From positions 37,608-101,607 of the forward strand of contig CAPRTS010000004.1 in assembly GCA_948695535.1 (NCBI GenBank): a DNA stretch of 64,000 nt, in the 5' to 3' direction. The notes under the pieces were generated by a model. The model did no database searches, was not told the DNA's origin, and saw only the letters and a list, made by a program, of their open reading frames with translations. How positions within the stretch are numbered: the stretch's first letter is position 1; every line of letters begins with the position of its first letter. Made by a program: the position numbers and the translations under genes. Positions 6,335 through 8,315 of this stretch are shown here, one piece after another. Source of the stretch: an uncultured Eubacteriales bacterium. GTDB taxonomy: Bacteria > Bacillota > Clostridia > Christensenellales > UBA1242.

Positions 6335-6363
6335 TTGTAACAGTGGGGTAATTGTGCTATAAT
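6335..6363 (+). promoter_or_regulatory. sigma-A-type promoter TTGTAA-N17-TATAAT (TG-extended) ending 7 nt before ATG 6371
   Basis: Hexamers read directly. No SD between the -10 box and the ATG, so the geometry is leaderless. Confidence 0.5.
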
Positions 6364-6393
6364 AATTTATATGAAAAATACGACCGAGAACTT

Positions 6394-6435
6394 GCAAGCA
6401 AGCAAGCAAGCAAGCAAGCAAGCAAGCAAGCAAGC
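6394..6435. repeat. tetranucleotide microsatellite (GCAA)x10 + GC
   Basis: Counted directly. Cross-checked against the antisense ORF translation (LLAC)x3, which requires ten TTGC units. Confidence 0.95.
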
Positions 6436-6458
6436 GTAAACTAACTATTTTTGGCAGT

Positions 6459-8315
6459 TTGTTAACTGCTGTTATTTTAATTGGCGTGGCGGTGATTACC
6501 GCGTGCGCCGTCAATATTAAACCGGCCAAGGCTGCGGGTGAACCGACCGCCACGCCGACCATTTTGGGTGGGGCGGTTGCCGAATACACGGGTACCGCAC
6601 AAAAAATCGTTACGGATTTACCATCGGGTATGAAATATATAATTCGTACAGACAAAATTGATACCACCAATATCGACGCGGGCAAAATTGTGCCGACTGG
6701 TTACACTGCGTTAGATTACTTGCAAAGTACGGGTACGCAATATATTGATACGGGGGTATTGGCGTCGGGCGACACACGAGTAGTAATTGATTGGCAATTT
6801 AATGATATTACGAATGCTCAACAACGCATTTTTGGTAATATGACGGGAAGTGATAGTTTTAATTTTGAAATATATCTTAACTCTCACTTTGGGATTTCGT
6901 ATTGTTATAATGATGATAATGGTAATTGGGTTAATACTCAGGTTGCAGCTGATACCGAGCGTCATGTTTTTGATCTCAATGGTTTAGCAAAAACTTTGCA
7001 AATTGACAATGGTAAAACTTTTAACAGTGGATTAAGTTATAATACTGTGAATAATTTTTCGGATACAACAATCGCTATATTTTTTAATCGTATAATGAAT
7101 AGTAGTGACTGTGTTGCTCACGCTAACGCGTACAGTTGCCAAATGTACGAAAAAGGCGTATTGCAACGTGATTTCGTTCCCGTGCGCGCCGACGACGGTA
7201 CGTTAGGCATGTACGATTTGTGCACGGGTGAATTGTACAAAAACCAAGGCGATGGTGACGATTTTGTTGCGGGCGATGAAGTCAATACCGCCATTAAAGA
7301 TTGGGAATGGCTGGACAGTGTGGACGATGAGCAAAACAATGTAACTTTGCAAGCCAACACCAAATATTACGTTTATTATTACACGCCGAACACCGACACC
7401 ACCACGGTGACCCCGTTGGCGGTTAAAGAATTTTACGTAAATTGTACCAACCATGTGTACGGCGAGTGGACAATCACCACGCCGGCGACGTGTACCACCG
7501 ACGGTGTCCGCGAACACACTTGTACGGGTTGTGGTCATGCCGAAAGTGAAACAATTACGGCGCTGGGGCACGATTACCAAGGTGTACCCGTCGCCCCGAC
7601 TTGCGGTGCACAAGGTTACACCGTGTATACTTGCACCCGTTGCCCAGAGCAGTACCAAGATGATTTTGTCGCCGCCACAGGCGAACATAGTTGGGGCGAA
7701 TGGACGACTACGGACGAACCAACCTGTACCGACGGCGGTACTCAGCAACATACTTGTAACGCGTGCGGTTTGACCGAAAGCGAACACACGTCCGCCACGG
7801 GGCATAATTACGGCACGCAAATTATTGATCCCACCTGTACCGCGGCGGGGTATACCGAACACGCTTGCCAAAATCCGGGCTGTACCGCCAGTTACCGCGA
7901 CGAACCTACCGCCGCCTTAGGTCACGAGTACGGGGATACGGTGCACCAACCGACCTGTACGGAAAGCGGTTATACCACGCACCAATGCCAACGTTGCGAA
8001 CACAGTTATAATGATACTTATACCGCGGCCACTGGTCACAAGTATGGCACTTGGACAACGACCGAACCGGCGACGACCGACCACCCGGGCGAACAACAAC
8101 GTACTTGCGAAGTTTGCGGTGCGATGCAAACGCGGACTTTACCGGCCTTGGCCGGTACCACCACTAACGGTGGCGAAAAAGATAATTCGGGCCCGTTGCT
8201 GTGGGGCATAATTATTGGTGCGATTGCGGTCTTGGCGGGTTGTGGTGGCTTGGCGTGGTTGCTGATTGTCTTGTTCAAACCCAAACACCCCAAAGCCGAA
8301 GTCGCGGCGGCGTAA
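6459..8315 (+). CDS. membrane-anchored surface protein with six Cys3-His modules; probable true start is ATG 6371, currently frameshifted by the GCAA tract
   Basis: 618-aa ORF as called from TTG 6459. Its frame is open back to 6375 through the repeat. Has an N-terminal hydrophobic segment, six ~38-aa H-x-[YW]-G...PTC...C-x2-C modules, and a C-terminal TM (LLWGIIIGAIAVLAGCGGLAWLLIVLF). Confidence 0.7.
   Translation: MLTAVILIGVAVITACAVNIKPAKAAGEPTATPTILGGAVAEYTGTAQKIVTDLPSGMKYIIRTDKIDTTNIDAGKIVPTGYTALDYLQSTGTQYIDTGVLASGDTRVVIDWQFNDITNAQQRIFGNMTGSDSFNFEIYLNSHFGISYCYNDDNGNWVNTQVAADTERHVFDLNGLAKTLQIDNGKTFNSGLSYNTVNNFSDTTIAIFFNRIMNSSDCVAHANAYSCQMYEKGVLQRDFVPVRADDGTLGMYDLCTGELYKNQGDGDDFVAGDEVNTAIKDWEWLDSVDDEQNNVTLQANTKYYVYYYTPNTDTTTVTPLAVKEFYVNCTNHVYGEWTITTPATCTTDGVREHTCTGCGHAESETITALGHDYQGVPVAPTCGAQGYTVYTCTRCPEQYQDDFVAATGEHSWGEWTTTDEPTCTDGGTQQHTCNACGLTESEHTSATGHNYGTQIIDPTCTAAGYTEHACQNPGCTASYRDEPTAALGHEYGDTVHQPTCTESGYTTHQCQRCEHSYNDTYTAATGHKYGTWTTTEPATTDHPGEQQRTCEVCGAMQTRTLPALAGTTTNGGEKDNSGPLLWGIIIGAIAVLAGCGGLAWLLIVLFKPKHPKAEVAAA

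Follow-up and report, generated by a model that had tools for sequence, protein, structure and literature searches.

A frameshifting GCAA tract as a probable phase-variation switch of a lectin-fold surface protein gene in an uncultured Clostridia lineage

Bacteria are known to switch genes on and off through length changes in short coding repeats. In Haemophilus influenzae, lex2A and oafA carry GCAA tracts for which alleles of 9-12 units have been scored as ON or OFF (PMC6479036), and in Streptococcus pyogenes slipped-strand mispairing in AACAA coding repeats controls production of SclB, also called Scl2 (PMC10330708, which cites Lukomski 2001 and Rasmussen & Bjorck 2001). Phase-variable surface and signalling genes are also described in the class Clostridia, with cwpV, flgB, cmrRST and pdcB of Clostridioides difficile as examples, and documented switching there works through invertible elements (10.1101/690230; PMC11868660). 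A 2025 review found multi-locus phase-variable genomes to be apparently restricted to pathogens and named database bias as one possible reason (PMC11868660). Here we describe a (GCAA)10 tract near the start of a gene for a surface protein in 64,000 nucleotides (nt) of DNA, hereafter the window, from an uncultured Eubacteriales bacterium of the Clostridia (assembly GCA_948695535.1, contig CAPRTS010000004.1, positions 37,608 to 101,607). We consider the locus very probably a simple sequence repeat (SSR) contingency locus, that is, a translational phase-variation switch, which is at present OFF. To our knowledge, SSR contingency loci have been characterised nearly all in cultured pathogens (Haemophilus, Neisseria, Campylobacter, Helicobacter, Mycoplasma and group A Streptococcus).

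Tract, reading frames and start codon

All features of the locus lie on the plus strand and are numbered from the first letter of the window. Tandem Repeats Finder returns an array of period 4 at 6394-6435 (10.5 copies, 100% matches); a regular-expression search places the perfect (GCAA)10 at 6394-6433, followed by GC, and this hypermutable tetranucleotide tract is the proposed switch. Base composition of the window is 43% G+C, and (GCAA)10 is its sole SSR of at least 12 nt with a unit longer than 3 nt. Matches to (GCAA)4 with at most one mismatch are confined to the tract in the window and were absent from 100 dinucleotide shuffles. The tract starts 23 nt after an ATG at 6371-6373, near the 5' end of an open reading frame (ORF), and the length of its unit is not divisible by three. 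Upstream, a promoter scan found TTGTAA-N17-TATAAT at 6335-6363 with a TG extension, 10 of 12 matches and the joint best score in 2.6 kb. The -35-like hexamer TTGTAA occupies 6335-6340, and CTTGTAA is kept at the homologous position in the related loci L003, L005, L006, L012 and L024. The extended -10 box TGcTATAAT, also recognised by family comparison, occupies 6355-6363 and ends 7 nt before the ATG. A search for this promoter cassette found one copy within the window, and an Rfam scan of the window returned two tRNAs only, both distant from the locus.

A first, sequence-only reading had placed the tract, promoter and ATG at these coordinates, all of which proved right, and its account of the reading frames is borne out by translation and simulation. 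In the present state, ATG 6371 opens an abortive 22-codon ORF (6371-6439) that reads MKNTTENLQASKQASKQASKQA and ends at TAA 6437-6439. This is the stop codon for tracts in which the number of units, n, is 1 mod 3, and its GCG-TAA context is common to L003, L004, L005, L006 and L024. Tracts with n = 2 mod 3, such as one of 11 units, lead to the TAA at 6442-6444. The long frame is stop-free back through the repeat from 8315 to 6375, and its earliest possible start codon is TTG 6459, from which database gene call P0001 takes a 618-codon ORF (6459-8315) that we read as having an artefact start. A Shine-Dalgarno (SD)-like sequence was looked for in the 20 nt 5' of this TTG and none was found, and an exact-protein look-up of the 618-amino-acid (aa) ORF returned no record. 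When the tract was replaced in silico, n = 6, 9, 12 or 15 fused ATG 6371 to the long ORF, giving products of 642-654 aa, and all remaining values from 5 to 15 gave peptides of 17-29 aa. Two of the three length classes are thus OFF, as had been claimed, and alleles of both states occur in nature (see below).

The mechanism that we propose is as follows. RNA polymerase would initiate at or beside the A of ATG 6371 from the extended -10 promoter 7 nt upstream, and translation, obliged to begin at this ATG, would read through (GCAA)n. Slipped-strand mispairing during replication would add or remove whole 4-nt units. With n divisible by three, ATG 6371 would be in frame with the 1.9-kb ORF, and otherwise one of the two TAA codons, at 6437 or at 6442, would end translation. 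With its ten units the window allele is OFF, and the loss of a single unit would turn it ON. A lipobox-type signal peptide would then be made, with (QASK)n, encoded by the tract, in its positively charged n-region. In a sister species the same promoter-ATG-tract cassette heads at least four other surface-protein genes, and switching at all of them would produce a stochastic, combinatorial display.

Comparison with relatives is informative about which start codon is real. A search with the reconstructed ON protein returned P0001 (618 aa, from TTG 6459) and a few true family members; most of its 4,879 matches are accounted for by the Cys-rich region of the protein. The gene for P0008, at locus L002, stands between a tgt-like gene and yajC in the same synteny as in the window. 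It is without the repeat and begins MKNTAENLRSSKHKLTIFG (more fully, MKNTAENLRSSKHKLTIFGCLF...) at the homologous ATG, 7 nt after TGATATAAT, and its DNA has merely two GCAA-like units (AGCAAGCA) at the site of the ten units of the window. That this repeat-free syntenic ortholog starts at the homologous ATG shows the start at ATG 6371 to be ancestral and the tract to have expanded within the N-terminal coding region. The sequence-only reading had counted orthologs that lack the repeat and keep the same start against a switch; the start kept here is ATG 6371, not TTG 6459, and the comparison supports the switch.

The main frame 5' of TTG 6459 contains a segment, R/H/N-K-L/V-T-I-F-G, which is conserved among paralogs, and on our reading of the alignment several of the differences between paralogs are synonymous; both observations indicate that the segment is coding sequence. 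It is at this point that the strongest rival explanation has to be weighed, namely that TTG 6459 is the true start, so that the tract lies in an untranslated 5' leader of 88 nt or a small upstream ORF and its length tunes expression via termination-reinitiation or mRNA structure. The database gene call does begin at this TTG, many genes of the window are without an SD so that SD-less initiation may be normal, and seven of the ten OFF alleles described below end their short ORF at GCG-TAA, about 20 nt before main-frame TTG or GTG codons. Nevertheless we regard this explanation as quite improbable, since ATG is the in-frame start both in repeat-free L002 and in the three ON alleles (L009, L007 and L012), all of which read from it through the conserved K/R-(L/V)-T-I-F-G, since several paralog changes in that segment are synonymous by our reading, and since a product starting at TTG 6459 would miss the charged n-region.

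For translation from ATG 6371, the position of the -10 box suggests an unusual mode of initiation. The box reads CGCTATAAT in L006 and TGnTA(T/A)AAT in the 12 other tract-bearing loci, and it is found 6-8 nt before the ATG in all 13. At such a distance there is no room for an SD, and transcription is expected to start at or beside the A of the ATG. The mRNA of the gene is probably leaderless, with its 5' end at ATG 6371. This looks like a leaderless-type start, a feature beyond what the sequence-only reading had described. Elsewhere in the window, ORFs at 4071 (gpsA), 12889, 31288 and 42165 likewise have a TAnAAT box 6-8 nt before their ATG, the last of them with a full TTGACA-N17-TATAAT; roughly estimated, about 0.2 such cases would be expected by chance among 36 long ORFs, versus these four. 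An SD-like motif was found near the first starts of 13 of the 32 window ORFs of at least 250 aa. The organism would thus appear to make many leaderless mRNAs, and its Clostridia lineage may rely to an unusual extent on initiation that is leaderless or SD-independent. Since a leaderless mRNA would offer the ribosome only its 5'-terminal AUG, the OFF states should be tight.

Tract length and frame state among relatives

DNA of relatives was fetched and the frame state computed for each locus, which gave 13 resolved alleles. At the tgt locus, defined by gpsA-tgt-X-yajC synteny, L002 has no tract and is ON with 0 GCAA units, L005 has 7 units and is OFF, the window has 10 and is OFF, L003 has 13 and is OFF, and L009 has 21 and is ON. 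Three pairs of loci, the members of each coming from different samples, are nearly identical outside the tract. L003 and L009 align over 3,878 nt with 2 mismatches, and their sole indel is the difference of 13 vs 21 units, OFF vs ON. L004 and L008 align over 7,080 nt with 0 mismatches and differ by a sole indel of 20 vs 24 units, which leaves both OFF in different frames. In the third pair, L012 and L024, 3,419 nt align with 2 mismatches, the sole indel being 18 vs 11 units, ON vs OFF.

A conspecific metagenome-assembled genome (MAG), GCA_948651415.1, has identical TGT (412 aa) and YajC (161 aa), and its DNA is 99.2% identical over 6 kb. One of its contigs finishes with CTT(GCAA)13 and another opens with (GCAA)13GCG, so that the assembly breaks inside the tract. 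Both ends are 55 nt long, which suggests an unresolved 55-mer assembly graph and therefore a tract that has at least 14 units or is mixed in length; in both cases the MAG departs from the 10 units of the window. Logan contigs reached via gpsA and tgt also end within or before the tract. Breaks in these contigs and in the MAG fit mixed lengths and equally a tract longer than the k-mer.

This variation in tract length among near-identical genomes, the ancestral ATG start and the existence of both ON and OFF alleles support the phase-variation switch that had been proposed from sequence. The features of a contingency locus that can be recognised in sequence, a perfect tract at the 5' end, length polymorphism, and alleles in both states, were all three found. 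Slippage is the mutational process that these whole-unit differences would point to, and switching within a clone would be reversible.

The resolved alleles comprise three that are ON and ten that are OFF, seven of these with a +1 and three with a +2 position of the main frame, a split that does not differ significantly from equal thirds (chi-square ~2.5, 2 d.f., p ~0.3, calculated by hand). In the first six loci the repeat alleles were all OFF, and the four GCAA alleles among them all had n = 1 mod 3 and ended in GCG-TAA, so that programmed +1 frameshifting or termination-reinitiation at TTG 6459 was considered. A shift from GCG to CGU gives no P-site re-pairing, and the 13 alleles split 3/7/3; the idea was rejected. 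The early n = 1 mod 3 excess is a small-sample effect, and its disappearance with more alleles also speaks against TTG 6459 as the true start. As to the predominance of OFF alleles, it could reflect selection against expression or plain two-to-one odds.

In a second rival explanation there is no adaptive switch: the gene would be a pseudogene in decay, or the length of 10 units would be an artefact of assembling or sequencing a low-complexity tract. The window allele is indeed frameshifted, 10 of the 13 resolved alleles are OFF, and contigs break inside the tract in both GCA_948651415.1 and the Logan assemblies. Yet the 1.9-kb downstream frame is intact in all OFF alleles and its sequence is conserved, and there are ON alleles whose flanks are near-identical to those of OFF alleles. 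Perfect tracts of 7-30 units, built from four different units, occupy the same codon position at no fewer than five loci, with none elsewhere in more than 150 kb. Furthermore, a tract of 40 nt is shorter than typical read and k-mer lengths, and n = 10 should therefore assemble reliably. We find this explanation highly improbable.

Several points nevertheless weigh against the locus being a phase-variation switch. Each allele is the consensus of a short-read metagenome assembly, and it is from such assembled consensus alleles that heterogeneity within populations and reversibility are inferred. Tracts beyond the assembler k-mer, those of 20-30 units, may be mis-sized. A single study (ERR31995xx-ERR31996xx) supplied several of the samples, which makes the alleles non-independent. 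OFF is the state of the window allele and of nine of the 12 other resolved alleles, as would also fit relaxed selection. As for expression, SD-independent initiation at TTG 6459 may make the OFF state leaky, given the modest share of long ORFs with an SD-like motif (13/32), and read-through from tgt is possible, no terminator being predicted in the 52-nt gap that follows it.

The encoded protein and its family

The product had been described as a cell-surface protein, and translation, family alignment and a fold model indicate that it is exported and surface-anchored. At 6435-6506 the main frame encodes a signal peptide composed of the RK end of the n-region, the hydrophobic core LTIFGSLLTAVILIGVAVI and a lipobox-like ITAC (6495-6506). 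By its motif, ITAC would be a lipobox, as it follows RK and a hydrophobic stretch of ~20 aa and conforms to the pattern [LVI][ASTVI][GAS]C. Residues I41, A43, C44, A45, V46 and N47 are invariant in seven family members, and IIGC is found at the equivalent place in an unrelated cassette gene downstream of mscS. The repeat peptide would be lost if the protein were processed as a lipoprotein, or if signal peptidase I cut at AKA/AG. It is thus probably removed on export, and ON alleles of any length would yield one and the same mature protein, which would explain tracts of 20-30 units. Further downstream, Cys-rich repeats at 7443-8150 comprise ~5-6 units with a C..C..C..C-type motif then GH.Y, and a C-terminal hydrophobic membrane anchor (8196-8276), followed by a KPKHPK tail, is conserved in P0002 and P0004-P0008.

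Between the signal peptide and the Cys-rich repeats, positions 6672-7289 encode a module of ~206 aa that is hypervariable between paralogs and has a ConA-like or LamG-like lectin fold. An earlier model of the N-terminal 365 aa, made with 7 sequences, reached a pLDDT of 49; it was replaced using a domain-level alignment of 44 sequences, with which the AlphaFold2 model of the module has a pLDDT of 87.8 and a pTM of 0.88. Foldseek matched this model to neurexin LNS/LamG domains, a trans-sialidase lectin domain and pentraxins (probability 1.00, E ~1e-4, TM 0.47-0.55), and, at TM 0.73-0.77 and up to 30% identity, to uncharacterised proteins of gut Siphoviridae and Myoviridae. Phage proteins annotated as 'ConA-like' or 'LamG-like' match the module at TM 0.5-0.6. 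A profile search detected the module in 23,156 representative proteins, frequently with 4-10 copies in tandem, and no sequence match to Pfam, NCBIfam, PHROG or PDB was found for it at E of 0.01 to 1 or better. The model shows a ConA-like jellyroll, an assignment at the level of fold only, and the module looks like an undescribed, very widespread lectin-fold domain that has no curated family. ConA-like jellyrolls are a usual scaffold for ligand or receptor binding. The product of the gene is probably a surface-exposed, ligand-binding protein, as modelled, and most likely it would bind a ligand or receptor and also be a target of phage or host recognition; a selective agent acting on the switch is presumed.

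Several further observations concern this module. Its motif Y-I/L-E-S-T-G-T-Q-Y-I-D-T-G ... L-V-R-D-F-I/V-P ... F-Y-T-N-x-G-T-G was seen in human-gut phage proteins (BFVD A0A8S5P150, A0A8S5TMI0, A0A8S5SE10 and A0A8S5NUX5). Its core, at 6752-7168 of the window, fails to align with L003 although both are orthologous tgt loci. At least three module types, independent of chromosomal locus, occur among P0001, P0002 and P0004-P0008; one is common to the window and L005, and another to L003, L002, L004 and L006. Such a distribution points to recombination that swaps modules, or to strong diversifying selection.

The gene is a member of a multi-locus family with different repeat units, a finding that goes beyond the sequence-only reading. 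A scan of genome contigs found the family in one GTDB representative genome only, CATLHJ01, an 'uncultured Clostridia bacterium' MAG. This genome has at least five tracts: (AACA)27 after rpoC, (GAAC)24 after uvrC, (GCAA)21 after tgt, (AGCA)18 after an MscS-like gene and (AACA)10 at a further locus. The species of the window has, besides the tgt locus, (AAAC)8 after rpoC, and one further sample has (GAAC)30 after scpB. The paralog units AAAC/AACA, GAAC and AGCA are found at the equivalent position in 8-30 copies, and the unit is constant for each locus across samples, being GCAA at tgt, GAAC at uvrC, AAAC/AACA at rpoC and AGCA at mscS. GCAA, AAAC, GAAC and AGCA are all stop-free and encode hydrophilic tetrapeptides with K or R (QASK, TNKQ, ERTN). 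Neither the rest of the 64-kb window nor any of the fetched loci had a further tetranucleotide tract of six or more units. Length differences arising mainly from recombination or gene conversion between paralog 5' cassettes, not from replication slippage, are scarcely credible, for although the cassette is homologous between unrelated genes and module types are shuffled relative to locus (at tgt, the window and L005 have the same type, and L003 and L002 a different one), which indicates recombination within the family, each locus retains its own unit across samples, and near-isogenic pairs differ by whole units only, with flanks unchanged, which is the signature expected of slippage.

The gene downstream of mscS encodes an unrelated protein with its own signal peptide, yet it has in common with the tgt-locus genes ~70 nt of promoter sequence, the ATG and the opening codons (MKNT), indicating that the 5' cassette is modular. 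No Pfam match was found on the 220 aa seen of this protein. The exported protein is 526 aa long (L012 3126-3419; L024 6766-7509), and its tract is (AGCA)18 and ON in L012, (AGCA)11 and OFF in L024. It is an evenly balanced conjecture that a portable 'switch cassette', in which an extended -10 promoter and a leaderless ATG, often with MKNT next, precede a tetranucleotide tract encoding the n-region of a lipoprotein-type signal peptide, heads at least two unrelated families of surface proteins at five or more loci, each with its own unit. Such an arrangement would constitute a multi-locus SSR 'phasome' outside the classical pathogens, in which OFF would be tight and tracts of up to 20-30 units would be free of cost. 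A protein-profile scan and a tract-3'-junction scan of JGI metagenomes gave no match, the lineage being absent from that collection, and a literature search on the run accessions ERR3199... likewise returned none.

Gene callers mis-start this family systematically. P0002, the database call for the (AAAC)8 paralog (L001 4001-4043), starts at an ATG inside the promoter (MLLFGTFGAIILSDE...), which makes the OFF allele seem an intact gene of 645 aa, and P0001, P0004-P0007 and P0029 are truncated gene calls. Such mis-started or truncated calls, together with assembly breaks at the tracts, imply that these genes are systematically mis-annotated in MAG catalogues. Public read sets make the switching hypothesis directly testable; contigs from five of them (ERR3199522, ERR3199548, ERR3199583, ERR3199598 and ERR3199658) match the window in whatever part of it they overlap.

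Some other features of the window were noted. The TGT gene (5020-6282, compared with L003 2401-3531) encodes 412 aa from ATG 5044, with a K/A/P-rich C-terminal extension of ~36 aa relative to TGT of the sister species, which has 376 aa. At 32347-42120 lies a giant ORF (3,257 aa). Imperfect tandem repeats of 69, 138, 207 and 360 nt with 69-75% matches were found at 59821-61490, inside an ORF of 1278 aa (57793-61629), which is probably a repeat-rich surface protein and possibly LRR/BspA-like.

Comparison with described switches

The closest mechanistic parallel is provided by the tetranucleotide loci of Haemophilus (GCAA in lex2A and oafA, CAAT in lic1A, lic2A and lic3A, GACA in lgtC), which likewise carry a perfect tract early in the coding sequence, are ON for one of every three length classes, and number several per genome with differing units. 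In lex2A and oafA even the unit, GCAA, is identical to that of the window, and tract lengths are comparable. The genes differ, being lipooligosaccharide glycosyltransferases and an acetylase in Haemophilus and a gene for a lectin-fold surface protein here, and so do the hosts, a Gram-negative pathogen and an uncultured Clostridia lineage. The window tract is further set apart by its location in the n-region of a signal peptide. We know of no description of the Haemophilus genes as leaderless.

SclB is the nearest Gram-positive precedent, being also a surface protein with short A/C-rich coding repeats. These repeats directly follow the start codon, in the region of the signal sequence. SclB differs in its 5-nt unit and single locus, and in being a collagen-like LPXTG protein of a pathogen; no leaderless cassette is described for it. 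Tracts in Neisseria and Campylobacter are mostly homopolymeric or pentanucleotide. The 'phasomes' of these bacteria resemble the present system in comprising many SSR-switched surface or modification genes with combinatorial expression (PMC11868660), whereas their hosts are pathogens or commensals of the Proteobacteria and Campylobacterota and not an uncultured Clostridia lineage. The switches of C. difficile belong to the same class, Clostridia, and work differently: invertible DNA is flipped there by a site-specific recombinase, whereas SSR frameshifts are proposed here.

The mechanism itself, that of a classical tetranucleotide contingency locus, is therefore known. What is new is the lineage, the gene family and the architecture of the cassette, which is apparently leaderless, lies in the n-region of a signal peptide and is common to unrelated genes. 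The locus and its relatives would amount to a Haemophilus-style multi-locus tetranucleotide system in a Clostridia lineage represented by metagenomes only, in control of lectin-fold surface proteins whose module is also found in proteins of gut phages.

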